Assembly: GCA_014905635.1 (NCBI GenBank)
Contig: CM026547.1
Location: 806,001-870,000 of the forward strand
Length of the DNA: 64,000 nucleotides
Reading direction: 5' to 3'
Origin: Scenedesmus sp. PABB004
Lineage: Eukaryota
Position 1 is the first letter of the stretch. Each line of letters opens with the position of its first letter. Shown here one piece after another: positions 14,001 to 59,720 of the stretch. The notes beneath the pieces were generated by a model. It ran no database searches and was not told the DNA's origin. It saw nothing but the letters and a program-made list of their open reading frames with translations. The translations under genes were made by a program, and so were the position numbers.

Positions 14001-14273
14001 GGGGAGGGGTGGTGTGGGGGGTGGGGGTGGGCGGGCGGCGCTGACACGCAGCCTCGCTCGCCGCGCTCGACCACGCTCACACCATCACCCCATCACACCA
14101 TCGCACCATGCCCCCCATCAACCCTCAACCCAAAACCCTAAACCCCGTGCCCCCCAACACACCCAGGACCGCTACCAGATCATCGACCGCGAGGTCGAGC
14201 GCCCGCGCAAGCAGGAGGTGGAGTTTTACCGCAAGCACCCTGTGCCCACGTGCGCGACCGCCGCCGGCCGGCG

Positions 14274-14337
<64 letters not shown>

Positions 14338-30327: not shown

Positions 30328-31394
30328 ATGTCTGAGCACGGTGAGGCGCGCGCGGCCTTCGGAGGCTCTGGGGACCGCCAGCGGTGCCAGCCGGGGCAGC
30401 AGCGGCGGCAGCACCGGCGGGCGCTGCTGCCGGCGCCAGCAGGCGGCGGGGGCAGGCGGCATGCATGCCCGCACCCCCGTCGGGCGGAGCGGCGGTCCCC
30501 GCGCGCAGCTGGAGCCGGCGCGGGCGCGGCCGGGCGCGCGGGGCGGCGTGGCCGCCGGCGCGGCGATGGCCCGGCCATCACGGCCCCCCCTGCGCCTCCC
30601 CGCGGCGCCGCGGAGCCCCGCGGCGGCGCGCGGGCGCCAGCGTGTCCCGTTGACGTGGGCGTCAGCCCGCGCCGCGGTCGCGCGGCGGCCCCTGCCGGCC
30701 GGGAGCAGGCGCTGCTGCCCGGCCGGGCGGTGGGCTCGCCCCGGGGCCGGGTTGCCGCTCCCCGCGCGCGCGTGACGCCCGGCGCCGATTAGCGGGCCCG
30801 GGGCCGCGCGCCGGCGGAGCGGCGCCGTGCCGGCGCGCCGGCGGCGCGGCCGCCGACCCGCGCCGCCCGCTGCCGCCCGCGCGCCGCCGCGTAGACCACG
30901 AGACCTTCGAGTCGACCGACGCGGGCGCGTCGCTCACCTTCCCCCAGCAGGCGGGCACCATCCGCAAGAACGGCTTCATCGTCATCCGCGGCCGCCCCTG
31001 CAAGGTGCGCAGCAGCGCAGCGCAGCAGCGGCGCCGCTGCGCTGCGCGCGGCGGACGGCGGCGGCCGCAGCAGCTGGCGCCGACGGCGGCCGGCGCCGCG
31101 GCGCAGGTCGTGGACGTGTCCACCTCCAAGACCGGCAAGCACGGCCACGCCAAGTGTAACTTCACCGGCGTGGACATCTTCACGGGCAAGAAGTATGAGG
31201 ACATGACGCCCTCGTCCCACAACATGGACGTGAGTCGCCGCGGGCCGGGAGCCGCGCCCGCGTTCCCGGCGCGCCCTGCGGCGCGCCCCGCGGCGCCCCG
31301 CCGCGGCTGCGCCGGGCACCGCGCAGCTGGCGCGCGCATCGGCCCGGCGCGCCGCCTCTTTCGGGCGCGTGCGGCGCTCCCGCCCACGCGCTGC

Positions 31395-31439
<45 letters not shown>

Positions 31440-31852
31440 CCCAGGTGCCCAACATCTCCCGCATCGAGTACACCATCGTCGACGTGAACGACGAGGGCTT
31501 CGTGAGTGCCCCGCCGCCGCGCCGGGGCCGCGCCCGCCGCCGCGCGGCGTGCCGGGGCCCGCCGCCGCGCGCCGCGCGCCGCCCGCCGCCGCCGCCGCGC
31601 GCCGGGGCCCGCCGCTGCAGCGCGCGCGCCGACGCCGCCCCGCGCCCGGCTGGCCGCGCGCACCAGGTGACGCTGATGCTCGAGAACGGCGACACGCGCG
31701 AGGACCTCACGCTGCCCAAGGGCACGGAGGAGGCGGAGAAGCTCGCGGAGCAGATCAAGGAGCAGTTTGCGGCGGGCCAGGAGATGGTCGCGTCGGTGCT
31801 CAAGGCCATGGGCGAGGAGATGATCAACTCGATCAAGATCATCCAGCAGTGA
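30328..31852 (+). CDS. EIF5A: Eukaryotic translation factor eIF5A, 5 exons
   Basis: Hypusine motif [12 protein letters not shown]. Exons 30328-30340, 30895-31004, 31108-31230, 31445-31501 and 31667-31852. Confidence 0.97.
31398..31437 (+). repeat. (CTG)n microsatellite at the 3' end of eIF5A intron 3
   Basis: Directly visible run. Confidence 0.9.
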
Positions 31853-34311: not shown

Positions 34312-34581
34312 TCGGGGGTCCTCGGCGCGGGCTGTCGCACCAAGTTTGTACCTGCACACGCCTGACGCGCCCGCGCGGGCCACGGATGAGCGGTGGGCGG
34401 TGAGCACGATCCACGGCCGGCCCGGGCGGCGCAGCCGATGAACCGGGCGGGCGTAACATGGAGACCCTCTGACTGCGACCCTGCCGCGGGCCTGGATGCC
34501 GGGGTCACACTCACGCCGCGACCCGCCCGGGAGCGCTGCCGCGGGCACGCCACGACGGCCGGGTGGCCCGCGCCGCCGGCG

Positions 34582-36619
34582 ATGAACGCGATTGCGAGCA
34601 GACATGCGGGCCCCGCGCGCCTGGCGGCGCGGGGCCGGCCCGCCCCGATCCTGGGCGCCCGGACGCTGCCCCTCCGCGCGCCACAGCAGCCCGCCTGCGC
34701 GCCGCTGAGCCTGGCGCCCGCAGCAGCAGCAGCAGTCCGCAGCAGCCCGCCCGGGCCCGCCTGGGCCCGGCAACCGCAGCACCGGCCGGCGCCGGGCGTG
34801 TGCCAAGCAGCAGCAGCGGGCGACGCAGCAGGTGCGGCGGCGGCGCGGGCGGCGGCGCGGGCGGCGGCGCGGGCGGCGGCGCTGCGCGTCGGCAAGCGAA
34901 GCGGCGCCGGCAGGGGGCGTCGGTCGCTCCCGCCGTGTCCAATTGGGCGCCGCGCCGCGCCGCGCCGCGCCCGCGCCCACCCCGCGCAGCGGCCGACGAC
35001 AAGCCGTCGGGCGGCCTGGTCGCGCTGCTCGGCCTGGGCGCGCTGTTCGCGGGCTGGTACCTGGCCAACATCTACTTCAACATGTGCGCGGCGCGCGCGC
35101 GGCGCGCCCCGGGCCCGCAGCGGCGGCGAGCAGGGCACGGCGCGCGCCGGTGCAGCGCGGCCGGCGGCGGCAGCCGGCGCGCCGACTAGACCGCGACCGC
35201 CGCGACCGCGACCGCCGCGCAGCTTCAACAAGACGCTGCTCAAGGGCTTTGCGCACCCGCTGACGGTGACCAACATCCAGTTCCTCATCGGCATGGTGCT
35301 CTCCGCGGTCTTCTGGACCACCGGCCTCGTCAAGCGCCCGCGCCTCGACGCCGCGACGGTGCGGCGCCGCGCGCTCGCCCGCGCTGCGCGCTCGCCCGCC
35401 GCGCTGCCGCTCAGCAGCGGCGCGCCGCCGCGTCCGTGCTGCTCCCGCCGCGCGCGCTCCAGGTCGCGAGCGTGTACCCGCTGGCCATCATCCACGTGCT
35501 GGGCAACGTGCTCACCAACGTCAGCCTCGGCAAGGTCGCGGTCTCCTTCACGCACACTGTCAAGGTGCGCGCCGCCCCGCGCGCCGCCGCCCCGCGCGCC
35601 GCCGCCCCGCGCCCGCGCCGCGTTGCCACGCCCACGCCCACCCTCGCGCCTGCCCGCTCACGCACGCCCTCTCCTCCCCCGCCCGCCCGCCCGCCCGCCC
35701 GCCCGCCCGCCCGCCCGCCCGCCGTGGTCCCCCCGCCGCGCGCCAGGCGATGGAGCCCTTCTTCAGCGTGATCATGTCTGCCATCTTCCTCGGCGACGTC
35801 CCGCCCGTGCCCGTGCTGCTCACGCTGCTGCCGATCGTCGGCGGCGTCGTGCTCGCGTCGCTGAGCGAGACGACCTTCAACTGGACCGGCTTCCTCGCCG
35901 CGATGTTCAGCAACATCACGTTCCAGTCGCGCAACGTGCTGAGCAAGAAGTTCATGATCTCCAAGGGCGCGATCGACAACATGAACCTCTTCCAGGTCAT
36001 CACGATCATGGCCTTCTTCATGCTCCTCCCCGTCACCGTGCTCGTCGAGGGCCTGCCCTGCCTCCCGCACAAGCTCGCGGCCGCGGTGCGGCCGCCCACG
36101 CTGCGCGCGGGGCCGCGGCGCCTGCCGCCGCGCGCCGACGCCGCGCCGCCGCCGACGCCGCCGCCGCGGCCGCGGCCGCGCGCCCCGCGCGCGCGCAGGG
36201 CTTTGACTCTGCGGCGCAGGCCGACCTCGCGCGCCGGCTGCTGAGCGCGGGCATCTGCTTCCACGGCTACCAGCAGCTCAGCTACATGATCCTCTCCCGC
36301 GTCTCGCCCGTCACGCACAGCATCGGCAACTGCGTCAAGCGCGTCGTCGTCATCGTCGCGAGCGTCGTCGCGTTCCAAAACCCCATGGGCCCGCAAAACG
36401 CGTTCGGTGCGCGCCGCGCCGCCGCCGCCGCGGGGCCGCGCCGCGCCGCGGGGCCAGCCGGCGGGCGCGGTTTCGATGCGGCGCCGCGGCGCCCGCGCCC
36501 GACCCGCACGCCCCGCGCCGCGCCGCGGCCGGCGCGCAGGCACGGGGCTGGCCATGTTTGGCGTCTTCCTCTACAGCCAGGCGAAGCGCAAGTACAAGGG
36601 CAAGCCCGCGCAGGCCTAG
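34582..36619 (+). CDS. PPT: Plastid phosphoenolpyruvate/phosphate translocator (TPT family)
   Basis: Transit peptide, then [44 protein letters not shown] and [17 protein letters not shown]. Confidence 0.88.
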
Positions 36620-37575
36620 GCGGCGGCACACGCGCGCGCCCGCGCGCAAGGTGGCCGCGCGGCCCCGCCGCGCGCCGCGGCCCGCGTGCGGCCGCGGCGC
36701 GGCGCGCGGCGCACGCGCCGGCGGCGGCGTCGGAGCGCGCGGCAGCAGCGGCTGCAGCAGCGGCGCGCGTGGGGAGGACGGGGCTGGGCGGGCGCGGCGG
36801 GGGCTGTGAGCGCAGCGGGCGTTGCGGGGGGAGCACTGGAGCCCAGGCGGCTGCCGCGGTCGGGGGCGTTAGGTGCGGGCCAGCGCCCGCTGGCAGGGGG
36901 CCCGGCCGGCGCTTCATTCGTGCCGCCGGTCTTGCATAGGCGATTGATTGCGCGCTAGAGGCCCGTTTTTGGACGTGCGTGCGACGTGCGTGCGACGTGC
37001 GCGGGCGCTGGGTGCTGTGACGCACCGGCGCGGGAATTGTGTGCATGCGCGCGGGGCAACGACGCGCGTCGACGACCGCGCCGCCGTGGCGCAGCGGGCC
37101 AGGGCCTGGCGCTGCGCCGCCACGGCGCTCCTGCGGTGTCGGTGCCCGGCCCCGCACACTCACCAGCCCGACGCGACCGCGCAGCTCGTGGCCAGCGCGT
37201 CAGGGCGGCCGGGCGGCGGCGCCAGAGGCGCCGGCGCGTCTGCTGCTGCTGCTGCTGCTGCGCAGTACTGCGTCGCGGGCGGCGCGTACCACCGCTCGAC
37301 CTCTCGGCAGCACGGGGACCGCGATCCCCAGCGCCGCCACGCGCGCACCAGCCCGGCGAGAGGGCATCGCCCAGGGCGCCACCGCCAGGCGCGAGCGAGA
37401 GCGCTCTTGAGCTGCGCCGTTCGCGTGGTGCGGACCCCAGACTCTCGTCGCGCCGGGCAGGTGCAGCGCGCCGAGCGCCGGCGGCGCCGGCAGCGGCGGC
37501 AGCAGCGGCGCGGTCCGCGGCGTCCGCGGCCGCAGCAGCAGTGCGCAGCTGCCGGGCCTCTCTCCCTCTGCAACC

Positions 37576-39012
37576 ATGGTGGCGGCGGGCACGGTGGCCC
37601 TGCTGCTGCTCTGCCTCTCGCTCAAGCTGGCACTCCTGGCGCTGCTCCTCGCCGCCTCGCTGCTCGGCGGCCTCCTCGCCTGGGCGGCGGGCGTCGTCGT
37701 GCGCCCCGTGATCGAACGCGCCGCGGCCAACGCCCTGGAGGAGGCCGCCGGCTGGGTGTCGTGGCCCGCCCTGCGCCGGCGCCTGCTGGCCGCGCTCGAC
37801 CCCGCGCTGGCGGCGCGGCGCTTCCATCCCGCGTTCTTCGGCCGCCGCCCGGCGCCGTGCGACCTGTACGCCGGCATCTGCATCACCCTCGACTGGCTGC
37901 GCGGGCAGGCGCCGTCGGGGCTGACGCCGCCGCTGGTGGTGTACCTGCGGCTGACGTGCAGGGCGCTGCACCAGTCGGAGCAGCTCGCGGCGACGAGCCT
38001 GTGCGTGCGGAGCCCGCTGCGCGTCGTCGACGTCGCGGGCGCGCTGTCCACGCCGGCGCGCTGGCGCCGCGTCGCCGCAGTGACGGCCGCGCACAGGCCC
38101 GAGGCGACGCCGCTGCTGCTCCTCCTCCTGAGCGCGCTGCCCGCGCTGCGCTCGCTGCGCGTGAGCGCGGGGCGGCCGGCCAGCGCGCTCGCCGCGCCGG
38201 GCGCCGGCGGCGCGGCCGACGCGCTGCTCGCCGCGGTCGCGGCCGCCATCGGCGCCGGGCGGGGCGGCGGCGACCGCGACGGCGCCGCGCGCGCCGAGGC
38301 GGCGGCCAAGGGCCTGCCCCACGCAGCCGTGGCCGGCCCGCAGCAGCAGCTCGGCTCGGCGGCCGGCGCCGCGGCGGCAGCGGTGGCAGCCGCGCTCCGC
38401 GTGGCGGCGGCGGCGGCGGCGGACGCCGCTGCGGCCGTGCAGCAGGCCTTCCCGCCGCCGGCGTCGGGCGAGGGCGGCGGCGGCGGCGGCGGCACGCGCG
38501 CGAGCGGCGGCGGCGGCGCCGGCGGCGCAGCGCCGGCCAGTGATGCCACCATCGACCTCGTCGCGGGGCTGGCCATCTGCGGCGCTCACTGGCCGGCCCT
38601 CCAGCGCCTGGACCTGGCGCACCTCGGGCTCACACCCGTCGCCGGGGCGCTGCTGGCGCAGGCGCAGGCGCGCGGGTGCTGGCCGCTGCTGGCGACGCTG
38701 CAGCTGGCCGGCAACCGCCTGGGCCTCCCAGGCGTGCGCGTGCTGCTGGCGGCGGCGGGCGCGCGCGGCTGGCGACGCCTGGAGCTGCTGGACCTGCGCG
38801 GCAATCTCGGCGACCGCGGCAGCGACGGCGCAGAGCTGGCAGAGCTGCTGGCGGGGCTTGAGGGCTGGACGGTCAGCAGCGACGCAGGGCCGCCGGCGGC
38901 GGCACCCGGCGAGCTGCTGCTGGCGCGTGGCGGCTGCGCGTGGGAGTGGCCCGGCGCGGCGGCGCCGCCGCCGCCGGCCGCGCGGCGCGCGGGCAGGCGC
39001 CTGCTGCTGTGA
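37576..39012 (+). CDS. Intronless protein with N-terminal hydrophobic segment and RNI-like leucine-rich repeats
   Basis: LQRLDLAHLGL, LATLQLAGNRL and LELLDLRGN match LxxLxLxxN repeats. Confidence 0.6.
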   Translation: MVAAGTVALLLLCLSLKLALLALLLAASLLGGLLAWAAGVVVRPVIERAAANALEEAAGWVSWPALRRRLLAALDPALAARRFHPAFFGRRPAPCDLYAGICITLDWLRGQAPSGLTPPLVVYLRLTCRALHQSEQLAATSLCVRSPLRVVDVAGALSTPARWRRVAAVTAAHRPEATPLLLLLLSALPALRSLRVSAGRPASALAAPGAGGAADALLAAVAAAIGAGRGGGDRDGAARAEAAAKGLPHAAVAGPQQQLGSAAGAAAAAVAAALRVAAAAAADAAAAVQQAFPPPASGEGGGGGGGTRASGGGGAGGAAPASDATIDLVAGLAICGAHWPALQRLDLAHLGLTPVAGALLAQAQARGCWPLLATLQLAGNRLGLPGVRVLLAAAGARGWRRLELLDLRGNLGDRGSDGAELAELLAGLEGWTVSSDAGPPAAAPGELLLARGGCAWEWPGAAAPPPPAARRAGRRLLL

Positions 39013-39072
39013 CCTCTCCCCTGACCTGACCTCCTGACCTTACCTCCGGACCTGACCTCCTGACCTGACCTC
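39010..39072 (+). repeat. Degenerate (cctgacct)-type tandem repeat just after the stop codon
   Basis: Directly visible. Confidence 0.75.
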
Positions 39073-39346: not shown

Positions 39347-42300
39347 CTACGGCACCTCCGCCGCCGCTGACAGCGCCCAGCCGCCGCGGCCGTCGCCAGA
39401 GACGACCAGCAGCGCGCCGTGCGCGCCCGCCAGCGCGGCGCCGTGCCCCACGGTGACGTAGCTCACGCCCGCGTCCCGCAGCGCGCGGAACAGCGCCAGC
39501 GCCGCGTCGGCCGGCAGCGACGACGTCGGCTCGTCCAGCAGCGCCAGCGCGGGGCGGTGCAGCAGCAGGCGCGCAAAGGCGAGCCGCTGGAGCTCGCCCG
39601 GCGACAGCAGGGCGCCCCAGTCCGCCGCGGCGGTGTCCAGCCCCGCCGGCAGCCGCGGCAGCAGGTACGAGAGGCCTACCGCGTCCAGCGCGCCGAGCAG
39701 TCGCTGACAGGCGCCGCAGCACGCGCCGCCGCCGCTGCCGCCGGCGACCTGCTTGTGCGGCGCGTCCCCGCGCGGCGCAACGAGCTGCTCACGCTGCTGC
39801 TGCGCGCCCAGCTGCTGGTGCTCGCGCAGCACGCCGCACGTGAGCCAGTCCTGCCACCAGCCGCCGCTGCCGCGCTGCAGGTGCTGCCGCCGCCGCCGGT
39901 GGTGCCGCTGCTGCTGCACGAGCGCCGCCTGCTTGTCGCCCTGCCAGCCGCCGCCGTCGCACGCGCAGCTGCAGGCAAACGCCGCCCCCGGGCTCGGGTG
40001 GGCCAGCTGATCTCGTAGGCTCGGCCCCGGCGCCGCGAGCACGCGCTGCGGCAGGAACATGGCGCCGCCGCCGACTGCGCCGCCCTGCTGGCTCGCCGGC
40101 GCCGGCACGCTGAAGCGCCCCGCCTCGGCCGGCCACAGCCCCGCCAGGCAGCGCAGAAGCGTGGTCTTGCCGCAGCCGCTGGGCCCCCGGATGAGCAGGG
40201 AGCAGGGGCCAGGGCCCAGCCGCAGGTGCAGCTCCCGCACGACCGGCACGCCCGCGGGCGTGCCCACGCTGAGGCCGCAGCACGCCAGCAGCGGGGGACC
40301 CGCAGCACGAACCGCCGGCGGCCATGCGACTGGCGGCGGCGCCGCCGCCGCCGGGCCGAAGCAGCCGCCGCCGCCGCCGCCGCCGCTGCTGCTGCTCGTG
40401 CTCGCCACGCCGGCGCTCAGGCTGCAGCTGCCGCCGCCGCCGCCGCCGCAGCCGCTGCCGCCGCCCGCCGCGTGCCGCAGCGCCTCGTGCACGAGTGGGA
40501 GCGGCGCCGACGTGAAGAGCGTCGCCGGGTAGATTGCGGTGCCGGCGAGCGGGTGCCTGATGAGCGCAAAACCGCCGCCGCTGCCGCCGCCGCCGGGCTG
40601 CTGCTGCTGCTGCTGCGGCTGCTGCTGCTGCTGCGGCTGCTGCTGCTGCTTGGCGTAGCCCAGCAGCACGCTCGCGCCGATGACCTCGTCATACGCCGCG
40701 CCCGCCCCGCGCCCGCGCAGCGCGGCGCCGCTGCGCGGGTCGACCGCGTCCGCCCAGTGCCCCCTGCGGCGCCGCGGCCGGACAGCAGGGTCGGCGGGGT
40801 CGGCGCGGTCGGCGCGCCGGCGCGTGCGCTGCGGCCGCGCCCCGCGGCGCGCGGCGCGCGCGCACCTGGCCGCCAGGAAGCTGCACACCGCGCCCTGCCA
40901 GGCCAGGAAGGTGTCCAGCATGTGCCGCATCTCGCCCGCGCTGCACACGCCGCCGGGGCCGCCGCCCTCGCTGCTGTCGCTGTCGCCGCCGCCGCCCGCG
41001 CAGCTGTCGCCATCGGCGCCGCTGTCGCTGCCGCCGGCGAGCACGCCGAGCGGCACCTCCGCCTGCCCGCGCGCGCGCGCCGCGCCGAGCGCGCGCGCCA
41101 GGCGGCGCCGCGCGGGCCCGCAGAACTGCACGCTCACCACGGCCAGGAGCGGCGCGAGGCGGGGCGAGTCGGGGAAGGCGCGGCGCACCTCCTGCAGCAG
41201 CACGTCGCTGCCCAGGCCGTGCACGCTGACCTGCAGCACCTCCGGCTCGGCCGCACCGCCCGCGCCGCCCGCGCCCGCCGCGCCGGCCGCCGGCGCGACG
41301 GCCACGAGCGCCGGCGGCTGCAGCGTCACCGCCTGGCTCGCGAAGCGCCGGTGCGCCGGCGCGGCGCCGTCGCCGACGAGCTGCAGTGGCCACGCGCCCT
41401 CCCACGACGCACGCGGCGGCGGCGCCGGCGGCGCGGCCTGCTCCTGCTCCTGCTGCAGCTCCAGCCGCGCATACTGCTGCGGCTGCAGCCGCTCCAGCTC
41501 CTCCAGCAGCTCGCTCACGCGCGCGGTGAGGCCGGCCAGGGTCGACGCCTGGCCGCCGAGGTCGAGCACCTGGCGCCCCCGGCGGGCGGCGGCGCGGCGC
41601 GGCGTGTCGGCGGCGGCGCGCACTCGGCCCCGGGCGCGTGCACTGCCGGCCGGAGCACCATCTCGTGCAAGTGTGTGATGGGAGTCCGTGCTTGATGGGA
41701 GTGCGGGCGCGCTCCCATCACACACTTGGGAGCGCGCCCGCACTCCCATCAAGCACACTTGGGAGCGCGCCCGCACTCCCATCAAGCACTGGCTCCCATC
41801 ACACACTGGCACGAGCGCTGACGCGAGCACCGCTGGCGCTCCCACACGGCCGCCGCCGCACCTGTGTGAGGCTGTTGATGAGGGTGAGCAGGTAGAAGCT
41901 GGCCAGCGACACGCGCGCCGCGAGCCCGCCGGGGCTGTGCCGCGCGTCGGCCCAGCCGTCGCCGCCAAACACCGCGGCCGCGAGGCACCCAAAGCTGACG
42001 ACAAGGCCGCCGTAGTCGAGGGCCTTGGTCGCGCACGTCAGCGCCGCGCGGCGCAGCACGAGGGCGCCCTGCGCGCGCAGCACGCGCGCGAGCGCGCCCG
42101 CGAGCGCCGCGCCCTCGGCCGGCGCGGCGCGCGCGAGCGCTACCTCGGGCGCCCACGCGCGCAGGCGCATGTGCGCGTAGCGGTAGCCGCCCTCCGCGGC
42201 CTCGAGCGCAAACACGCCCGCCGCGACCGGCGCCATCGCGAGGCGCTGCAGCAGCGCGCCCGCGGCAAAGTAGGCGCCCGCCGCGAGCACGGGCAGCCAG

Positions 42301-42896
42301 CTGCCAAACACCTGGCGCGTGAGGTGGGCGTACCAGAGCGCGCCAAACGGCGCGCCCGCGAGCACGCCCAGCACGTCGGCCAGCGCGTCGGTGAGCAGCG
42401 GCAGGTCCTGCGCCAGGCGCTGGTCGGGGCTGTCCGCGCGCAGCGCGGCGCCGCCGGCGACGGCGGACACGTAGAGCGCCTGCGCGTGCGCCGCGAGCGC
42501 GCCGCGCCAGCGCCACGCGAGCGCGTCGCGCAGCGCGGCCTTGGCCGCGTAGAACGCGGCCGCGCCGGCGTAGGCGCCGCCGCTCCAGGCCAGCAGCCCC
42601 GCCACGCGCCCGCGCTGGTCGTCGAGGAAGGCGGCGTAGAAGGCGGCCGACACCGCCCCGAGCCGCGACACGAGCAGCGCCTCGGCCACCGCGACGCCCG
42701 CCAGCGCGAGCGCCGGCCACGCGCGCAGCAGCACGAGCAGGCGCGACAGCCGCCGCGCCAGGCGCCAGCCCAGGTCCACCGGCGGCCGCCGCGCAGGCGG
42801 CGGCGGCGGCGGCGGGCCGGGGCGCTGCCGCTCGTGCGGCGGCAGCAGCGGCGCCGCCGCGCCGCGCGCCGGGCCGTCGGCGCCGCGCGCACCCAT
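39347..42896 (-). CDS. ABCD4: ABCD4 (CblJ)-like half ABC transporter with an internal MMADHC/CblD-like domain, 3 exons
   Basis: Exons 42896-41862, 41569-40866 and 40763-39347. TMD: DSPDQRLAQD, PFGALWY, EGGYRYAHMRLR, LDYGG, LAGLTARVSEL. NBD: GPSGCGKTTLLRCLAGLW, FLPQ, LSPGELQRLAFARL, LLDEPTS, TVGH. Insert: FLAWQGAVCSFLAARGHWADAVDPRSG...IRHPLAGTAIYPATLFTSAP. Confidence 0.85.
41662..41815. repeat. 154-bp inverted repeat (56-bp arms) inside ABCD4-like intron 1
   Basis: 41662-41717 is the reverse complement of 41760-41815 at 53 of 56 positions. The 42-nt loop carries a further partial arm copy. Confidence 0.92.
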
Positions 42897-43295: not shown

Positions 43296-43733
43296 ATGGC
43301 GCTGCGCGCCCTGGGCCGCGCGCTGGCGCCGGCGCTGACGCGTGCCAGCAGCTCCACGCCCACGGTGTTCGACCGCATGGTGCAGATCTTTGTCATCGAC
43401 AAGAGCGGCGTGCGGCACACCGTGCGGGGGCTCGAGGGCGCGTCGCTCGCGTCGGCGCTGCAGGAGTACGGCGGCTTCGGCGACGACAGCTTCATGCCGC
43501 ACGTCTTCGAGCCGGGGCTGCCCGACTGCCACGTCTACGTGCAGGGCGACTACCTCGACAAGCTGCCGCCGCTCGACGGCGAGGCGGCGCAGGACCACGC
43601 GCGCGTGCTCGAGACCGCGGTGCGCGCCAAGGCGCGCGACAACAGCCGCATGGCGCACTACATCGCCCTCACGCCCGCGCTCAACGGCATGACCGTCGCG
43701 CTCGGCGACGTCGAGCCGTGGGAGACGCAGTGA
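43296..43733 (+). CDS. Mitochondrial complex I bridge ferredoxin (C1-FDX/NUOP3-like), intronless
   Basis: Presequence MALRALGRAL, then DRMVQIFVIDKSG..RGLEG, CHVYV..YLDKLPP and NSRM...LNGMTVAL..EPW. Adrenodoxin-like fold with only one Cys. Confidence 0.8.
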   Translation: MALRALGRALAPALTRASSSTPTVFDRMVQIFVIDKSGVRHTVRGLEGASLASALQEYGGFGDDSFMPHVFEPGLPDCHVYVQGDYLDKLPPLDGEAAQDHARVLETAVRAKARDNSRMAHYIALTPALNGMTVALGDVEPWETQ

Positions 43734-45966: not shown

Positions 45967-47023
45967 GGCGCCTGCTGCGGAGCAGAGGCAGCAGCGGGGG
46001 ATGCGGCAGCAAGTTTGAATGGCGCGCCGCGCCAAACGGCCGCGGGCCGGCGCCCAGACGCGCCCGGCGCGTCGATCGGTCGCTTAAGCACCGCGCCGGG
46101 AGCGCCCGGGCCGCCGCGGCGCCGCGGCGGGCCACGACACGCCGAGCACGCGGGCCGCGGGGCCGTGCGGGCCGCCCGCGCTGCCGCACGTCGCGGCGCG
46201 CTCACCGGAGCTGTGTGAAAGCGAGACGGCGCCGGACAGCCGCGCCGCGGGGCGCGAGGGGGCCGCGGGGCGGCGCTGGCGCGGGGGGAGCTCGAGTCTG
46301 CAGGCGCGGAGGCTGGCGAGGGTGCGGCTGCACGGGCGATGTGGGCGGGGTGAGCCCCGGGGTGCCCCTGCGTGCCCCCCGCGCGCAAAGACCTGGGCCG
46401 CGGCGATGGTGATGCGCGCCCACCACCCCGCGCCTGCAGCGCGCGCCGCCCCACATTGGCGCAGCGTCGCGGCCGTCCCCGCCCCCGCACCACCGCACGC
46501 GACCCCGGCGAGCCAGGTGCGCACCGCGCGCGCACGCCGGCGGGCGCGGCGCCCCGGCGCGCGCAGCGGGCGCGGGGGCGACCGGGAGTCGGCGGCGGGC
46601 CGGTAGCAGGCCGCACGAGGGGCGCCAGGGCACCCCGCGGGCGGCCCAGGCGCCTGCGCGCTGATGGAGCGTTACAAGCGCTCCCGCGGCCTGCACCGGG
46701 CGCCTGCGGGCGCGGGCGCGCGGCGGCGGCACCGTCCCGGCTCCTGGGTGGCGCGGGGCGGCCGAGCGGCGGGGCAACTGCAGCAACGGTTCCCTGATTG
46801 CGCCTGCGCCCCGCCCAGCCGGCCGCGCGCGCCCGGATTGCAGGGTGCCGCCCCGCCCCCGGGTCGGCGGGCGGGCCGGGCGGGCCCCGGGCTGCGGGCG
46901 GGCCCGGCGGCGGGCCGCGGCGCCTCCGGCGGCGCGGCAGCAGCGGCGGCGCTGACGCTGCTGCCGCCGCCCCGCCCGCGCCCGCGGCCGCCGCAGGCCC
47001 CTCGCCGCCGGCGCTCCACCGCC

Positions 47024-48709
47024 ATGGCGTCGCTCATGGCCAAGGCCCAGACCGGGCGCGCAGCCGGCGCCCGCGCGCAGCAGCCGCGCAGGTGCGCGAC
47101 GCCGCAGCAGCAGCGCGGGGCAGCAGCAGCAGCAGCACGCGGCGCGGCGGGCGCGCGAGCGCTCGCCCTGCCCGCGCGCCCGCGCTCACCCCGCCGGCCC
47201 TCCCCGCCCCCCGCGCTCAGGGCGCCGCTCGTGGTGCGCGCGGTCGCGACGACCGCCAAGAAGGACGGCACCTCCGCGGCCGCGGCCAAGGCGGGGCTCA
47301 CGCCCGAGGTGGCCAAGGACCTCTACTACGACATGGTCCTCGGCCGCGAGTTCGAGGAGATGTGCGCGCAGGTGCGGCGCCCGGCGGCGCTGTCGCGCTG
47401 GCGCCGGCGCTGCCGCGCGCTGCTGGGCCCTGCTGGGCGCTGCGTGCGCGCGCGGAACTGCGCCGATCGCCCGCACCGCGCCGCCCCGCGCGCGCCCGGC
47501 CCCGCCGCGGCGCCAGATGTACTACCGCGGCAAGATGTTTGGCTTCGTGCACCTCTACTCCGGCCAGGAGGCCGTGTCCACGGGTGCGCGCGCCGCTCGC
47601 CCGCGCCGCCGCGCGCGGCCGCGCCGCCGCGCGCTGCGCGCGCGCCGCTCGCTGACGCCGGCGCCGGCGCGCAGGCATCATCCGCTGCCTGCGCCCCGAC
47701 GACTACGTGTGCTCCACGTACCGCGACCACGTGCACGCGCTCTCCAAGGGCGTGCCCGCGCGCGAGGTGCGCGCCCCGCGGCCCGCACCCGCTCCGCCGC
47801 GCCTACTGTCTCCCACCCACGCCCACGCCCACCCACGCCCGCCCGCCCGCGCCCGCGCCTCTTGCCGCCGCCGCCAGGTCATGGCAGAGCTCTTTGGCAA
47901 GCAGACGGGCTGCTGCCGCGGGCAGGGCGGCAGCATGCACATGTTCAGCGCCAAGCACGGCGTGCTGGGCGGCTACGCCTTCATCGGCGAGGGCATCCCC
48001 ATCGGCGTCGGCGCGGCGTTCAAGTCGGCGTACAAGTGAGCCCAGCCTGAGCCCGAGCTGGGCGACGCGGCGGCGCCGCAGCTGCGGCGGCGCTGCGCGC
48101 GGCGGCGGCGCGGTCAGGGCCAGGGCCGGGGCGGCGCGGCCAGGCGCGGGCGCCCACGCGCCGCGCCACGCGCGCCCCGCCGCGCGCGCTCGCAGGCGCC
48201 GCGTGCTGGGCGACGAGTCGAGCGACAGCGTGACGTGCTCGTTCTTTGGCGACGGCACGTGCAACGTGGGCCAGTTCTACGAGTCCCTCAACATGGCCGC
48301 CCTGTACAAGCTGCCCCACATCTTTGTCGTCGAGAACAACATGTGCGCGCGCGGCACGCGCCCGGCAGCTGGTTGACTGACCCGGCGACAGCCGACTGAC
48401 GCGGCGGCAGACGCGGCGGCAGACGCGGCAGACGCGTCCGCTCACTGCCGCCGCTCCTTTGCCGCCGCAGGTGGGCGATCGGCATGAGCCACCTGCGCAG
48501 CACGAGCCACACGCTCGGCGACGCCGACTTCCCCTACATCTACAAGAAGGGCCCCGCCTTTGGCATGCCCGGCGTGCGCGTGGACGGAATGGACGTGCTC
48601 AAGGCGCGGCGCCGCGGCGCGGCCGGGGGGCGCGGCGGGCGCGAGGCAGGCGCCCGGGCCGGGGCTGGCGCGGGTGCGGCCCTGCGGGGCCGCCGCGACC
48701 CCATGCCAA

Positions 48710-48772
<63 letters not shown>

Positions 48773-49509
48773 GCGCCTGCCCGCGTGCGCGCGCAGGTGC
48801 GCGAGGTCGCGCTGGAGGCGATCGCGCGCGCGCGGCGCGGCGACGGCCCGACCCTGATCGAGGCGGAGACCTACCGCTTCCGCGGCCACTCGCTCGCCGA
48901 CCCCGACGAGCTGCGCAGCAAGGAGGAGAAGGCGCGGTACCAGGTGGGTGGACCCCGCCCGCGCGCGCGCGCGCGCGCGCGCGCGCCGGCCCGCGGCGGA
49001 GCCCCGACGCGGCAGGCACACACACAGCGTGCACCTGCGCGCCGCCCGGCGCGCCGCTGACGCCCGCGCGCGCCGCCGTCCCCCGCCGCCATGGCCTGCC
49101 GCTGCCCGCGCAGGCGCGCGACCCCATCCCGCAGCTGAAGCGCATCATGCTCGCGGAGGGCCTCGCCACGGAGGACGACATCAAGGCCATCGAGGACAAG
49201 TGAGGCTGCTCCGCCGCCCCCGCGCCGCCGCCGCGCCGCCGCGCTGCGCGCCGACCGGCGCCTGCCGCGCCGCGCCGCTGCGCCCGTGCGGCGTGCTGAC
49301 GCGCGCGCGCGCCACGCGCGCCCACGACGCGCAGGGTCGCCGCCGAGGTGGAGGACAGCGTGCAGTTTGCGGACGAGTCGCCCAAGCCGGAGAAGGGGCA
49401 GCTGCTGGAGAACGTGTTTGCCGACCCCCGCGGCTTTGGCATCGCCGCCGACGGGCGCTACCGCTACGAGATGCCCGGCTTCACCAGCGGCACCGCCGCC
49501 GTGTCCTAG
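47024..49509 (+). CDS. pdhA: Plastid pyruvate dehydrogenase E1 alpha subunit
   Basis: [41 protein letters not shown]-binding FFGDG...VENN and [18 protein letters not shown] at 49969-49973. Confidence 0.96.
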
Positions 49510-50284
49510 GCCGCTGCCTTGCAGGACGCACCGGGCGCGCGGCGCGCGGCCCCCGGCGGGCGCGTGCGCGCGCGCGGTGGGCGGCGCCCGCCCGGGCGGG
49601 CGCGCCGCGGCGCCGGCGCCGGCGCGCCGGCCCACACATCGGCACAGGGCGCCGAGATGCGCGCGTCGCATTCGGCCCCGGCCGGCGCGGCGGCGGCGGC
49701 GGCGCGCGCGCGCGCCCGCTGCGTGCGGAGGAGAGCAGGAGCGGGGGCTGGCCGCGGCGGCTGGCGGCTGCGGCGGGCCAGCAGCATGGCACGTCACGCG
49801 TCGCGCGCACTCAGATTGTGTGGGCGTTGAAGCAGGGCGGGCGGGCGGGGGCGTCTGGGTCGCGCCTTCTCTCTCTCTCAGGGGGGTCGACCACTTGCGC
49901 GGGCGCGCGCCCCTGGGCGGCGCGCGGCGCGAACGAGCGGCGCGCGTGCCGCTGGGCGCGAGGCCATTTGTAACATGCGCAACGAGCGCTGCGGCTGATC
50001 CCTTCCGCTCTGGACGCAGGCGCCGAGGCCGCCGCCGCCGCCGTTCAAACCCGAACCGCGCACGGCGCGGCCCCTGTCCTGTTCCGCTCGCCACACGGCC
50101 GCTGCGCCGCCGTAGAGCTGTGTGTCCCTGGCAGTCGCGCGAGGCGCGCCAGCGTGCCTCGGGAGCGGGAGCAGCAGCAGCTCACTGCCAGCCGTGCACC
50201 GCCGATCGCGGCGCGGGCTTCGCGGCGTCCGGTCCCCAGACCCAGGGCCGGCCGCCTGGGCGGGCGGGGCGGCCCGGCGCCACC

Positions 50285-53062
50285 ATGCGCGCCAAGACGC
50301 TGCAGATTGTCTGGCACGCCAAGGAGCCCGTCTTCTCCGTCGACTTTCACCCCGTCGACGGCTACCTGGCGACCGGGGGCGCCGACAAGGACGTCAAGGC
50401 GCGGGCCGCGCCCGCAGCGCGCCCGCCGCCGGCCCAGCAGCAGCCGCGCGGCGCGCGCTGCCGCAGCGCGCGGAGCGCGCGCCAACCGCCGCTGCCGCCG
50501 CCGCCGCCGCCGCAGCTATGGGAGCTCTGCCCCGAGCCGGACGGCACGCCCGCGGTGCGCTACGTGCGCAGCCTGGAGGGGCACAGCCGCACCATCAACT
50601 GCGTGCGCTTCTCGCGAACAGGCGCGGCACGGCGGTGGCCCCGCTGTGGGCGCGCCCGCGGCGGCAGCGGCGGCGCGAGCGCGCCGTCGCCAACGGCGCG
50701 CGCGCACCGTGCCGATGCCCGCCCACAGGCCACTGCCTGGCGTCGGCGGGCGACAGCGGCGAGGTCATCGTCTGGCGGCTCGCGCCCGGCGCGGCGGCGG
50801 CGGCGGCGGCGGCGGCAGCGGCAACGGGGAGCGCGGCGCGCGGCGGCGGCGCGGGGCCCGGCACGCCGGCGTCCGTGGCCAAGCCCCCCGACGCCGCCGG
50901 CGCGCGCGGCGGCTCGCCCTGCGCGACGCCCGCGGCGGCGCCGGCCGCCCGCGGCAGCCCCGCCGCGACGCCGGCGCCGGCGCGCGCCGCCGCGGGCGCG
51001 GGCGCGGCCGGCGAGGGCGACGCCGACGGCGACGCGGCGCGGGAGCCGCGCTTCGCGTGGCGCATGGCGGCGAGCCTGCGGGGCCACCACGACGACGTGA
51101 CCGACCTCGCGTGGAGCCACGACGACGCGGCGCTGCTGAGCGGGAGCGTCGAAAATGACGTCATGCTGTTTGACGTCGAGCAGCGCACCTACCTGGTGCG
51201 ACGCGCGGCGCGCGGCGCGGCGGGCAGCCGTAGCGGGCGGGCGCGGCAGGCGGCCGTGGCGTGCAGGCACGGGAGGCGGGCGCTGAGCTCCGCCGCCGCG
51301 CCCGCTGCCGCCGGCGCAGAACCGGCTGGTCGGGCACCGACACTACGTTCAGGGCGTGGCGTGGGACCCGCTGGGCGCGTGGCTCGCGAGCGCGAGCGCG
51401 GACCGCAGCGTGCGCGTGCACGCGCCCAAGCCGCCGCCGGCGGCGGGCAAGGGCTCCGGCGCGGGCGCGATCAAGGGCAGCACGGCGCTGGCCAAGGAGC
51501 TGGTCCACGCCGCGACGCTCGCCAAGCGCACGCTGCCGCTGCCGCCGACGCCCGGCCGCGCGCCGCCGGGCGCCGGCGGCGAGGGCGGCGGCGACCCCGC
51601 GGCAGCGGCGGCGGCAGCGCAGCAGGAGCCCGTCGCCGGCGGCGGCGGCGAGCCCGCGGCGGGGACGCCGGCCAAGGCGCTGCAGGTGTCGCTGTTCCAC
51701 GATGAGAGCCTGCAGGTCTTCTTCCGGCGCCTGGCGTGGTCGCCCGACGGCTCGCTGCTCGCCGTGCCGGCGGGGCTCGCGCGCGACGAGAACGGCGCGG
51801 CGCCGCGGGCGCGCAACACAACGTACCTCTACGCCCGGGGCCAGTGGTGCGGCCGCCGCGCCGCGCCGCTGCCCACCTGGCGCGTGCAGGGGGGCGCGCG
51901 CGTGCGCGTGCGCAGCGGGGCGGCCGCCGACGCGCCCCGCGCGCGCCCCCGCGCCCGCCCGCAGGGGCAGCCCGCTCGCGTCGCTGCCGTGCCCCGCCAA
52001 GGCCTCCACCGCGGTGCGCTTCTGCCCGCTGCTCTTCCGGCTGCGCGGCGGCGCTGGCGCCGGCGACCAGGCCGGCGGCGAGGCGGGCGGCGGCGGCGGC
52101 GGCAGCGCGCTGGGCCTGCCGTACCGGCTGGTCCTTGCGGTGGCCACGCTGGACAGTGTGCTGCTCTTTGACACGCAGGTGGGGCCCCTGCGTGTGCGCG
52201 CGCGCCGTCTTTGCGCGTGCGTGCGGCCGCCCCCGGCCGTTCCCGGCCCCACGCGCTGCTGTCCGCGCCGCCGCCGCGCGCGCGCAGACGCTGGAGCCAT
52301 GCCTGCTGGCGGGGCCGCTGCACTACGCTCCCATAACCGACCTCGCGTGGTCGCGCGACGGCGCCGCGCTCGCGGTCAGCTCGCACGACGGCTACTGCTC
52401 GCTGTTGACCTTTGCGCCGGGGGAGCTCGGGGAGCCGCTGCCGCGCGAGGAGCTGCCGCCGGGGCTGGCCGAGGGCATGGCGCGCGCCGCCGCGGCCGCG
52501 GCGGCCACGGCGGCGCGTGCGGGGGCGGCGGCGCCGCGACGCCGCCGCCGCAGCCGCCGCCCGCGCCGGCGGCGACGCCCGCGGCGGCCAGCAGGCGGCG
52601 GGCGCGGCCGCCCCCGGGGGCGCGGGGGCGGCGGGCCCCGCGCCCAAGCGCATCCAGCCGCAGGCGGTCGGCGCGCCGCCGGCGGCCGGCGGCGGCGGCG
52701 GCGTGCAGCCGCGGCGCATCAACCCCTCCCCCGTGGCGGCCGCGGCGGCGCCCGCGCCCGCGCCCGCGCCGCGCCGGCTGACGCCCACGCCCGTTGCCGA
52801 GGCGGCCGCGCAGCCCGCGCCGCGCCGACTGACGCCGCAGCCGGTGGCGGCGCCAGGCGGCGAAGGCGGCACGGCGGCGCCCCCGCTCGCGCCGGCGGCG
52901 CAGCCGGCCGCGCCCGCGGCGCCGGGCGGCGGCGGCGGCGGCGCGCGCACCGCGCTGGCGGCGGTCGCGGCCGCGCGCGCGGCGGCCGAGGCCAAGCGCA
53001 AGGCCGCTGCCGCGGCGCTGGACGGCGGCAGCGAGGACGGCAAGCGCGCGCGGCAGGCGTGA
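50285..53062 (+). CDS. CHAF1B: Chromatin assembly factor 1 subunit B (p60/FAS2/Cac2), WD40
   Basis: [45 protein letters not shown] and [18 protein letters not shown]. Frame change near 52520 (37-nt intron or indel). Confidence 0.9.
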
Positions 53063-53331
53063 CGGGCTGGGCGCAGGGCGCGCCGAGCCCTCGTAACGGG
53101 TGTCCGGCGCCGGCCCATCTGCCTTCCGCCCATCCGCCCGCCCGTTTGTGAGCGCCCCAAGGCGCCCCGTGCAGCCCGATCTCGCTCGGGGCGACGCCCC
53201 GCTCGCGCACGCGACGCGTCGTCGCGGCCGCAGCGCGCCCGCGCCGCCGCCCCAGCAGCCGCATTCGCGCCTGGGCGCCCCTCCCGCGCCCCTCCCGCGC
53301 TCTTCCCGCGCCACAGCGAGCGGCAAACGAC

Positions 53332-56771: not shown

Positions 56772-57277
56772 TCAGGCGCTGCTGCCGCGATCAAACTCAA
56801 ACGCGAGCCCCAGAGCAAACGCCAGCAGCCGGCTGTCGACCGCCCAGCCGTTTGCGCGCTGCAGGCCGAGCAGCGCGTCTGCGAGGCCCCGCAGCGGCAG
56901 CAGCAGCACCTGCAGCGTCTCGCCCAGCTGCGGGCGGGCGGGCCGCGGGCGAGCGGGCGAGCGGGCGGCGTCGGCGTCGGCGCCGGCGCCGGCGCACGCC
57001 TGGCGCTGTGGGCGGGCCCCGCGCCGCGCACCTCCAGCTGGGGCTTCGGGTCGGCGTTCTCGGGCGCGGCGGCGTCGACCGTGGCAAAGGCAAACTGCAG
57101 GCGCCGGGCGGCGGCGCTCAGCAGCGGCGCTGCCGGCCCCGCGCCGAGGCGCTGCGTGCCGCCTCGCACTCACATTCAGGCAGCTGTTGCAAAGCCCCTG
57201 GTCGTTCGTGCACTCGGGCGTGACGCGCGTGACCGCGCCGGTGAAGCCTGCGGCGCGCTCCCGCGTCGGCGGAGCGC

Positions 57278-57313
<36 letters not shown>

Positions 57314-57956
57314 AGAAGCCCACCTGTCTCCTCGCGGAGCTCGCGCACCGCGACCTGCGCCGGGGTCTCGCCGCGCTCGATCACGCCCGCCGGCAGCTCG
57401 AGCACAAACGTGCGCACGGGCGGCCGCCACTGCGCGATCACGAGCAGCCGGTCGGGCTGGCCCTGGGCCACGACCTGGCGGTCGCGCGCCGCGCGGCGTC
57501 GGCGGTGAGGGCGGAAGAAGGCTTGCTGCAGCATGTGCGGCGGCACGCGCAGCACGCACGCGCGCGAAGACGCCGACGCCGTCGGTCTCCCGGAACTTTG
57601 AGACGCGCTCAACAAACTCCCAGTCGTACGTCCTGCGCCCCGACGGCCGCGGCGGTCACGCGGCGCGCCAACCGCCGCGCCGCTGCTGCCCGCGCCAACC
57701 GCCCCCGCCGCGCCACTGCTGCCCGCGCCAACCGCCCCCGCGCACCTGCCCTGCGCGTCCCTGCACTGCGTAGGAGGGGGAGCGGCAGCGGCGGGAGCGG
57801 CCGGTGAGCCTGCGACGGCCCAGCAAGCTGCGTCGGCGGCGGATGGGCCAAGCGCCGCACCTGCAGCGACCGCAAGCGGAGCCACTTGGCGGCCGGCGGC
57901 GTGAGGTCGTGTACATCCAGGACCTCTGGAGCTGCGGGGGGCGCCGCGGTGGCCAT
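56772..57956 (-). CDS. Nudix hydrolase, NUDT5/ADP-ribose pyrophosphatase-like, about 7 exons
   Basis: WEFVER..DGVGV, QWRPPV..VLELPAG, Nudix box GVIERGETPAQVAVRELREETG and C-terminal VDSRLLAFALGL. Confidence 0.88.
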
Positions 57957-58198
57957 TTGGTGGGCGCGTGGCGGCGGCGGCGAGGCGAGGCGGTCGCGGG
58001 CGCGATGGGTTGAAAACCCTTCGACCAGAACGCTTCTGAGCTGTCATGCCACCCACCCATCTCTTGACAACCTGCGCGCTTTGATCCATTCGCGCCGCCC
58101 GCCCGCACGCCGCGCGCACGGCGCCGTGCAGAGCAGCGGCCGCCGCGAGCTGCCGCAGCCGCCCACGCCCGCGCGCGCCGCCGGGCCGGCCAGCGCCA

Positions 58199-59720
58199 AT
58201 GGCGGACGATGAAGCCAAGCTGGCGGCCTTTCGGTGGGTGGCCGGGACAGGCGCTTGGGGGACGTGTGCGGCGGGAGCAGCGTGGGCGGGTGCTGGCGCG
58301 CCGGCCGACTGCGCGGCCGACTGCGCGCCGGCCTGCAGCGCTCGCCCGCGCCTAGAGCCAGCCGACCCCACGACGCCCGCGGCGACACAGGGCGTACGAC
58401 TGGGAGTGCGAGGCGTTCGCGTCGCACCTGAGGAACGTGGAGCTACCAGGCGCCGCGGCGCCGGCTGCGCTGCTCAAGGCACGCGCAGCGCGCGCGGCCG
58501 CGGCCCGCAGCGCGCGCGACCGCGCTGCTGCAACTAGTCTCAACTGCCCGCAGGTCAAGGCCAAGTGGTTCAAGCGGCACGTGGACCCCGACTTTGAACC
58601 GGCGCTGGTCACCGGCGCCGCGCCCGCGCCCGCCAGCCAGCCGCCGCCGCCGCCGCCGCAGCAGCCCCGCAGCGGCGGCGCCGGCGCGCCGGCCGCGGCG
58701 GCGGCGGCGCCGCCGCCTCGGGCGTCGAGCGGGCCCGTGCCCGTCGCCGCTCAGGCCCTGGCGCGGCTGCCCTACGAGCGGCAGCTACACATGGCGTTGC
58801 TGTATCTGATGGTGAGCGCCGCGCCGCGCGCGCGCACACGCAGGCGCCGCCGCGCTCTGCCGCACGCTCGCAGGCGCCGCCGCGCCGAGCCCGCCGCCCG
58901 CCCGCCCGCGCGGCGCGCAGATCCTGGTCCTCACGCTCGCCGTCGTGCAGCCGTTCAGCCTGCGCCTCGCGACCTGGGCGTACCTTCGCCTCGCGCTCGC
59001 GGTGCTCGCGTGCCAGGCACTCAAGGTCCACGCCGCGCAGGGGCTGCCGCGCAGCCTCGCAGACCTGGCGGCGCTGCGCGCATGGGCGGCGCGCGTGCTC
59101 TCGCACACGGACGGGCAGTGGGCCCTGCTCGCTGGCGCGGCGGCGGCGACCGCGCGCGCGCCCTTCACGCCCCTCGTAATGCCCTGGGCCACGGTTGCGC
59201 TGGTCAACGTCGCGTGGTTCGCCCACGAGCACCACAGGGCGCATCCGGTCTGGGCGGCGCTGCGGGGCGAGGCGCTCTTCGCGTGGCTCGCATCGCGCCA
59301 GGCCGCCGTCGGGCTGTGGGTGGCGCAGAGTGAGATTGCGGCGGCGGCAGGGCTGACGGTCATGCTGCTCACGCCGCGCCGCCAGCCGCTGCTGTGTCTG
59401 GTCGCTTGGAACGTGCTGCGCATGCGCTTCTGGAGCGTCGACGCCGCGCTGCAGCACCGGCAGGCACGTTCTGCTGCGGTTGGCGCGCGCGCCCACACCA
59501 ACCAGCGGCCGCGGCGGCGATTGGCGCGCGCGCGCCAACCAGCGGCCGCGGCGGCGACGCGCCCGGGCCCGCGCCCCTCACGCCGCACCCCGCCCTCGCG
59601 CCGCAGGTGTGGGGAGCGATCGGCGCGCTCACGGCACGCTGGCGGGCGCAGTTCCCGGTGCTGCAGAAGGTGGCGGACTTTGGGACCCGCTACTTCCACG
59701 CCGGCCGCGGCGCGACGTGA
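58199..59720 (+). CDS. TMEM33/Pom33-like ER membrane protein, 5 exons
   Basis: Plant-type N-domain AYDW...NVELP...KAKWFKRHVDPDF, several TM segments and WNVLRMRF...HRQVW. Confidence 0.7.

Follow-up and report, generated by a model that had tools for sequence, protein, structure and literature searches.

How cobalamin (vitamin B12) leaves endomembrane compartments and is delivered to enzymes is poorly known outside mammals. The question is raised by a locus in Scenedesmus sp. PABB004, on a 64,000-nt stretch of contig CM026547.1 (GenBank assembly GCA_014905635.1, positions 806,001 to 870,000; hereafter the window, in whose own numbering all coordinates are given). Here, a gene on the minus strand (42896-39347) appears to join an ATP-binding cassette (ABC) half-transporter of the ABCD4 (CblJ) type to a domain resembling MMADHC (CblD). 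Is this a single protein, are its parts what they resemble, and what might it do? Our analysis supports the structural interpretation, in which a CblD-fold domain is lodged within an ABCD4-like transporter; the functional interpretation, in which B12 export and onward delivery are physically coupled, is plausible, and it is qualified by a missing cysteine. The intracellular B12 route in algae is essentially undescribed (PMC10828217, PMC11439496). The papers cited by accession or preprint number were available in part, and whatever is attributed to them, or said to be absent from them, refers to those parts.

Gene Structure

The gene has three exons that form a single spliced frame. Its start, at 42896, is the first ATG of the open reading frame (ORF) 43040-41799; this ORF and a second one, 42037-39347 (both on the minus strand), are joined through a GT..AG intron at 41861-41570, across which the frame remains in phase (...INSLTQ / VLDLGG...). 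The spliced coding sequence is 3156 nt long including the stop codon and encodes 1051 residues with no internal stop. An ABC_membrane_2 transmembrane domain (TMD) is followed by an insert of about 300 residues and then by a complete ABC ATPase domain (the nucleotide-binding domain, NBD). An earlier, sequence-only reading of the locus had claimed one frame with three parts, no stop between them, and both domain junctions inside exons, and this description held: the TMD-insert junction lies within exon 2 and the insert-NBD junction within exon 3. A hidden Markov model (HMM) of the family gave 631.9 bits on the 1051-residue spliced protein. The features of the gene, with the basis of each in parentheses, are as follows.

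41862-42896, minus strand: exon 1, with the ATG, the N terminus, and most of the TMD, ending ...INSLTQ (ORF, sequence)
41570-41861, minus strand: intron 1, GT..AG, 292 nt (in-phase ORF join)
40866-41569, minus strand: exon 2, which finishes the TMD helix (VLDLGG...ELLEEL) and continues through a linker into the N-terminal half of the CblD domain (ORF, sequence, alignments)
40764-40865, minus strand: putative intron 2, AG/GTGCGC...GCAG/G, 102 nt, in frame and free of stops (profile gain, alignment gaps)
39347-40763, minus strand: exon 3, which completes the CblD domain (C-terminal half) and carries a Gly/Ser-rich linker followed by the ABC ATPase domain and the stop (ORF, sequence)
39349-39347, minus strand: stop codon (sequence)
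41967-42713, minus strand: ABC_membrane_2 (PF06472) TMD (Pfam E 6.4e-22, residues 110-358 of the ORF translation)
40466-41359, minus strand: predicted CblD/MMADHC-fold domain, including intron 2 and two low-complexity loops (AlphaFold2 model, Foldseek, sequence)
40550-40650, minus strand: CblD hairpin region, a poly-Gln/Gly expansion followed by ...GGGFALIRHP (alignments)
39521-40231, minus strand: ABC_tran (PF00005) ATPase domain (Pfam E 2.5e-15, 57.7 bits)
39735-39990, minus strand: NBD insertion of about 80 residues, located after the Q-loop region and before the signature (alignment gaps)

Intron 2 lies inside the CblD insert. Because its 102 nt keep the frame open, the unspliced reading also gives a plausible-looking protein. 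Splicing it out raised the score of the CblD profile from 79.3 to 96.0 bits, and its 34 codons fall opposite gaps in nine of ten aligned relatives; the public gene model of one relative, P0020, seems to have left an intron unspliced at this position (…RCAR…). The NBD insertion (about 39990-39735) falls opposite gaps in all ten aligned relatives. When 22 in-frame GT..AG candidates within it were considered, the family-HMM score rose from 631.9 to at most 655.3 bits, and the insertion may be either a lineage-specific low-complexity segment or an unrecognized in-frame intron. Both intron 2 and the NBD insertion were read from sequence only. The inserted segment is rich in His, Arg, and Gln, and the relatives P0017 and P0020 also have long NBD insertions.

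Intron 1 contains a 33-bp tandem repeat (2.9 copies at 41696-41789, Tandem Repeats Finder), within which an exact 30-mer occurs twice and which is the only place in the window where that 30-mer is found. The sequence flanking the repeat has a partly palindromic look.

The CblD/MMADHC Insert

The sequence-only reading had predicted that a domain scan would return ABC_membrane_2, MMADHC, and ABC_tran. The two ABC domains were recovered, but MMADHC (PF10229) scored 14.2-16.4 bits on pieces of the window (E 0.008 at 16.4 bits), below the cut-off of 27, in a comparison made with unspliced or partial translations only. Against the Protein Data Bank (PDB), phmmer gave weak but colinear matches between the insert and MMADHC, which accounted for four of the seven matches at E <= 10. 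A phmmer search with the insert (40451-41398) against 1.84 billion representative proteins returned 123 matches at E <= 0.001, 19 of them at E <= 1e-10, and Pfam MMADHC was found at E <= 1e-5 in 83 of the 123 (28 of 57 and 55 of 66). We rejected one match, P0106, a CHU_C/SprB protein, as a spurious low-complexity match. An HMM built from 74 stand-alone MMADHC rows scored the spliced protein at 96.0 bits over residues 558-679, with a weak N-terminal piece of 5.4 bits, compared with a best score of 6.1 bits on 1000 shuffled inserts; the 74 rows come from among the insert's own phmmer matches that show no ABC family, and the score is not fully independent.

The AlphaFold2 model of the insert (124-row alignment, model residues 14-311) had a predicted local distance difference test score (pLDDT) of 80.5 and a predicted template modeling score of 0.82; its core was confident and its low-complexity loops disordered. 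When the model was compared with the PDB by Foldseek, ranks 1-8 were all CblD structures (5cv0, 6x8z, 9mrs, 5cuz, and 5a4r) with a probability of 1.00, E values from 7.5e-5 to 1.4e-2, and target-normalized template modeling scores of 0.65-0.72; non-CblD folds appeared in this search from rank 9 onward, all at E > 1. Together, the sequence comparisons and the predicted structure support the conclusion that the insert is a genuine CblD/MMADHC-fold domain. Its identification with MMADHC had been proposed from two motif pairs, which we recovered in the HMMER alignment (rghwadavdprsg/egywadfidpssg and alirhplagt/kvirhslwgt). The proposed extent, 41242-40477, proved too short: the CblD fold was confirmed, but the folded domain starts further upstream, at about 41359.

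The insert shares with MMADHC/CblD proteins (PF10229; PDB 5cv0, 6x8z, 9mrs, and 5a4r) both the fold and conserved sequence blocks, and three core blocks are common to it and the Pfam-positive CblD proteins: WAD.(V/I)DP.SG, EV.GA..LLGY, and HP..G...YPAT.FT.AP. It differs from MMADHC in that it is not a free protein, the transporter stands in place of the N terminus, and the loops are expanded. The long helix begins with E-M-D in fused CblD domains, as opposed to E-K-D in stand-alone CblD proteins.

A word-based homology search with the insert returned a single match, P0003; low-complexity words probably swamped this search. A scan for prokaryotic CblD with two peptide patterns, in one genome per species, turned up no CblD relative, and as a narrow pattern scan it is not proof of absence. 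Its 50 pattern matches included one confirmed locus, in a metagenome-assembled genome of the Planctomycetota (L001:3947-5323). We rejected the 458-residue ORF of this locus as a CblD protein: it has a chance FWADYIDPASG motif at its N terminus and otherwise no resemblance to CblD, and inspection by eye suggests that it is integrase-like.

The Transporter Domains

The protein has the build of a half-transporter, a PF06472 TMD followed by a PF00005 NBD in the single spliced frame, and the last cytosolic helix of the TMD extends into exon 2, to about 41480. The motifs of the ATPase are intact: Walker A is GPSGCGKT (40186-40163), the signature is LSPGE(LQR) (39607-39593), and the Q loop (LPQR), Walker B with its Glu (LLDEPT), and the H-loop His (VGHG) are also present.

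When the TMD was compared with PDB sequences, five matched at E <= 0.001, three of them ABCD4 (best 6jbj, E 4e-20) and two plant ABCD1 (4.8e-9); no human ABCD1-3 chain matched at this threshold. A profile of the fused family gave, per half-transporter, 477-481 bits on ABCD4, 303-307 bits on ABCD1, and 295-301 bits on ABCD3. The top of this profile search was a plant full-size ABCD1, through four matched stretches spread over its two halves. The NBD alone did not discriminate between the two types (104.7 bits for ABCD1 and 101.9 bits for ABCD4). These comparisons support the view that the transporter is ABCD4-like rather than ABCD1-3-like. The sequence-only reading had claimed the same specificity, and the PDB matches, the family-profile scores, and the phylogenetic tree described below all agree with it, as do the motif pairs that it had cited for the TMD, which recur in the alignment with 6jbj (adspdqrlaqd/idnpdqrisqd and eggyryahmrlr/egdfrfkhmqir).

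ABCD4 (the lysosomal cobalamin transporter; PDB 6jbj and 24vc) and the window protein thus have in common the half-transporter composed of an ABC_membrane_2 TMD and an ABC_tran NBD, and the motifs D(N/S)PDQR and EG..R..HM..R (HMMER alignment with 6jbj). Whereas the two profile-matched stretches are almost contiguous in the ABCD4 chain, the window protein carries about 300-400 residues of domain and linker between TMD and NBD, and it has the additional insertion of about 80 residues within the NBD.

A Conserved Fused Family

The architecture is not peculiar to this organism and occurs in other eukaryotic sources as well. Seven other proteins (P0019, P0033, P0034, P0051, P0053, P0111, and P0128) carry ABC_membrane_2, MMADHC, and ABC_tran on one chain according to Pfam, with MMADHC scores above the cut-off of 27 bits: 60.2 in P0051, 41.6 in P0034, 41.0 in P0128, 40.1 in P0053, 37.7 in P0033, 36.6 in P0111, and 28.8 in P0019. 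In P0127 MMADHC scored 23.5 bits, and P0035 has both ABC domains and an insert match at E 1.7e-7. Shorter models contain MMADHC and ABC_tran (P0040, P0046, and P0109) or an insert match adjoining ABC_tran (P0003, P0017, P0020, P0022, P0025, P0045, P0048, P0060, and P0098), and the closest matches, P0004-P0010, begin with the last helix of the TMD and continue into the N-terminal half of the insert. P0019 and P0127 are transcriptome ORFs labeled complete, which places the three domains on one mRNA in these relatives. The amino-acid composition of the fused proteins varies widely, which suggests that several lineages carry the fusion. From these sequences, we conclude that the ABCD4-CblD fusion is a conserved family found in several eukaryotic sources and not a one-off. 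In the ESM Atlas, P0051 matched generic ABCD and ABCD4 clusters only, and no fused cluster came up.

The eight best-defined members (P0019, P0033, P0034, P0051, P0053, P0111, P0127, and P0128) share domain order and clade with the window protein, to which they are 34-40% identical over the aligned parts. They differ from it in that most have one hairpin cysteine (see below) and in that they lack its poly-Gln loop and its NBD insertion.

We placed the family in a tree of 51 rows and 576 columns, from which a 60% fill rule had dropped the insert columns (IQ-TREE, quick search; the named references were picked by name out of a single search listing). The window protein and nine fused proteins formed one clade with a support of 100 in the Shimodaira-Hasegawa-like approximate likelihood ratio test (SH-aLRT). 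This clade joined the named fungal and animal ABCD4 proteins with a support of 85, a moderate value from a quick search, and both the ABCD1/2/3 clade and the plant chloroplast ABCD2 clade (support 100 each) excluded the window protein. The fused clade is thus sister to ABCD4, with moderate support, and lies apart from ABCD1-3.

The Hairpin Cysteines

In human MMADHC, Cys-261 of a β-hairpin ligates the cobalt of the B12 bound to MMACHC, and the resulting Co-S bond is the main source of the affinity between the two proteins; the complex of C261S MMADHC with MMACHC-cob(II)alamin was undetectable, and a role in release of the cofactor has been proposed for Cys-262 (PMC12501144). At the positions of Cys-261 and Cys-262, the window protein has Gly-Phe (40573-40568), the HMMER alignments placing its G-F-A-L-I-R-H-P opposite C-C-K-V-I-R-H-S; in this respect its CblD domain departs from MMADHC. 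Lacking the hairpin cysteine, the window copy cannot hand off B12 by the Co-S chemistry that is known. The sequence-only reading had envisaged onward routing of B12 as in animals, and that part of it is not supported here, the human-type hand-off being dependent on the Cys-261 thiolate.

At least one Cys is present in 89 of 108 aligned rows covering the hairpin (Cys-Cys in 24, a single Cys in 65); the other 19, including the window protein, have none. As 19 family rows do without it, the alignment indicates that the hairpin cysteine is a feature of mechanism and not of descent. The 19 ABC-linked relatives divide into 13 with one Cys and 6 with none; judging from these 13, the ancestral fused form probably used a hairpin cysteine. 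The Cys-less hairpin is also found in P0017 and P0020, the nearest NBD-linked relatives of the window protein. The fused forms have at most one hairpin cysteine.

Possible Function

We favor the explanation that the gene encodes a single-chain B12 exporter of the ABCD4 type with an inserted CblD docking adaptor, and we put its probability at roughly 60%. The product would be an ABC half-transporter of the CblJ type, with the CblD/MMADHC-fold domain following the last transmembrane helix and preceding the ATPase domain. Judged by analogy with ABCD4, the protein would form a homodimer in an internal membrane and carry cobalamin out of the lumen into the cytosol. Because the CblD domain lies between the cytosolic extension of the transmembrane helix and the NBD, it would be placed on the ATPase face, and the presumed homodimer would present two ATPase and two CblD domains to the cytosol. 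Tethered there, the CblD domain could serve as a docking adaptor where B12 emerges from the transporter, holding the next acceptor beside it, presumably a CblC-type processing protein and/or apo-methionine synthase, such that B12 might be passed on without free diffusion. Most members of the family do have a hairpin cysteine, and in them the Co-S clasp could work at the transporter itself; in the window copy, docking would occur through protein-protein contacts only, for example with methionine synthase.

The separate parts have known roles in animals. ABCD4 releases B12 from lysosomes (PMC4960490, PMC5059523), having been targeted to a lysosome-type compartment by LMBD1 (PMC4960490). Human MMADHC clasps MMACHC-bound B12 (PMC12501144) and also binds the C-terminal half of apo-methionine synthase in order to load it (PMC13376404).

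Several results weigh against this explanation. The Gly-Phe dipeptide replaces the two hairpin cysteines; the Pfam score of the insert is below threshold, and the profile of stand-alone rows that recognizes it was built from its own matches; the NBD alone is no closer to ABCD4 than to ABCD1; and the union of the fused clade with ABCD4 is moderately supported, in a tree where the branch of the window protein is long (1.26) and its composition atypical. Pfam detected no B12-related gene among the other 174 ORFs of at least 220 residues in the window. Lastly, CblF/LMBD1, the escort of ABCD4, is found among algae almost exclusively in dinoflagellates (preprint 10.1101/2023.06.07.544158), which means that a lysosome-type route is not established in green algae and that a mammalian-style route should not be assumed.

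In the most serious alternative, the architecture is the same and the CblD-fold domain, no longer a B12 chaperone, would serve as a spacer that separates TMD and NBD and has a structural or regulatory role. It might gate the ATPase activity, and cobalamin may or may not have remained the cargo. The Cys-less hairpin, which P0017 and P0020 share, is what such a domain might look like, given that the loss of Cys-261 leaves the human complex undetectable (PMC12501144), and the insert also has long low-complexity loops, with poly-Gln/Gly expansions in the hairpin itself. However, the core otherwise shows good conservation with respect to Pfam-positive CblD proteins, a sign of continued constraint, and AlphaFold2 models it with confidence. 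Moreover, 13 of the 19 ABC-linked relatives retain a cysteine, and MMADHC has a second partner in methionine synthase (PMC13376404). We consider a spacer unlikely, though it deserves to be weighed seriously.

A second alternative is that the fusion is an artefact of read-through in high-GC DNA, and that the locus really contains two or three genes or a pseudogene, the frame being open across the insert by chance. G+C is about 75-84% across the whole 64-kb window, and in this region of about 80% GC long open frames occur in all six frames; because of this, an open frame alone carries little weight. Intron 2 and the NBD insertion, too, are known from sequence only. Against an artefact, TMD and NBD flank the insert in the frame and order of seven Pfam-confirmed three-domain proteins from elsewhere, two relatives are complete transcriptome ORFs, the window protein clusters with its fused relatives at a support of 100, and the spliced protein reaches 631.9 bits with the family HMM and has no internal stop. 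An artefact is therefore very improbable. We regard as equally far-fetched an acyl-CoA transporter of the peroxisomal ABCD1-3 type, or a plastid/bacterial one of the SbmA-BacA type, carrying an extra domain: the slight preference of the NBD for ABCD1 and the plant full-size ABCD1 at the top of the profile search (four stretches over two halves) are outweighed by the match of the TMD to ABCD4 at E 4e-20 with no human ABCD1-3 chain at E 0.001, by scores per half-transporter of about 480 bits for ABCD4 compared with about 305 bits for ABCD1 or ABCD3, and by the exclusion of the window protein from the ABCD1/2/3 and plant chloroplast ABCD2 clades, each with a support of 100.

Significance and Relation to Published Work

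The fusion links two steps that are carried out by separate proteins in animals, and it offers a concrete, testable candidate for B12 trafficking in algae. The conserved joining of the CblJ exporter to CblD, the branch-point adaptor, argues strongly, on genomic grounds, for joint action of the two. It also predicts contact between the separate human proteins ABCD4 and MMADHC, both of which are products of disease genes. A bolder extension treats the fusion as a Rosetta stone for the B12 pathway of eukaryotes as a whole: CblD would sit at the mouth of ABCD4 and form a membrane-bound relay from transporter to CblC/CblD to methionine synthase, ABCD4 and MMADHC would touch in humans, and the Cys-less members would hand off B12 without a Co-S bond, thereby revealing a second way of doing so. 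We offer this extension tentatively, as a possibility that we would not yet bet on. Under it, the fused clade, as the sister of opisthokont ABCD4, could represent either an ancient fused condition that animals and fungi later undid by splitting the gene or one early fusion event in an algal or protist ancestor.

We found no description of an ABCD4-CblD or CblJ-CblD fusion in the full-text literature outside subscription-only papers, in agreement with the original suspicion that it was undescribed. The available parts of PMC10828217, PMC2995210, preprint 10.1101/2023.06.07.544158, PMC8085122, PMC11439496, PMC11910325, and PMC11311337 do not mention it, although one older passage hints at an ABC link. 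In a large survey of plants and algae, PF10229 served to score CblD and PF00005 to score CblJ, the two being treated as separate proteins, and neither the word "fused" nor a CblD-CblJ fusion occurs in the available main text (PMC11439496; preprint 10.1101/2023.06.07.544158). The per-gene homologue lists in its supplements might already enter these proteins once as CblD and again as CblJ, and surveys that score the two separately, as this one does (PMC11439496), may count one protein twice. The three-domain architecture is visible in the precomputed Pfam strings of public proteins. It is thus already in the databases, yet we found no printed discussion of it, and the window gene appears to be a member of a conserved, undescribed fused family.

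Neighboring Sequence

Apart from the fusion gene, a Pfam scan of the 174 other ORFs found only scattered pieces of eukaryotic housekeeping genes, which fits a nuclear, intron-bearing eukaryotic region. At gathering thresholds, Rfam gave no match in the window, and no B12 riboswitch-like element was thus recognized there. The neighboring features, all assigned by Pfam on raw ORFs, are as follows.

9050-10369, minus strand: ERp29-like
13024-15500, plus strand: mRNA capping enzyme
30654-31484, plus strand: eIF5A
34390-36936, plus strand: TPT-family transporter
46607-48373, plus strand: E1 dehydrogenase
49139-53148, plus strand: CAF1B/HIR1-like WD40 protein, multi-exon
57121-58473, minus strand: NUDIX
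63226-63999, plus strand: WD40 protein at the window edge

Two further ORFs on the plus strand lie close to the transporter gene, and neither has a Pfam match at E <= 0.01. One, at 43310-43733 (MALRALG…, about 140 residues), is divergent and lies about 400 bp upstream of the transporter ATG; the other, at 37411-39009, is convergent and has a leucine-rich-repeat-like text (…LDLRGNLGDRG…). In the gap before this convergent neighbor, about 280 nt 3' of the transporter stop codon, a 13-nt unit, CCTGACCTGACCT, is repeated 4.1 times (39020-39072).

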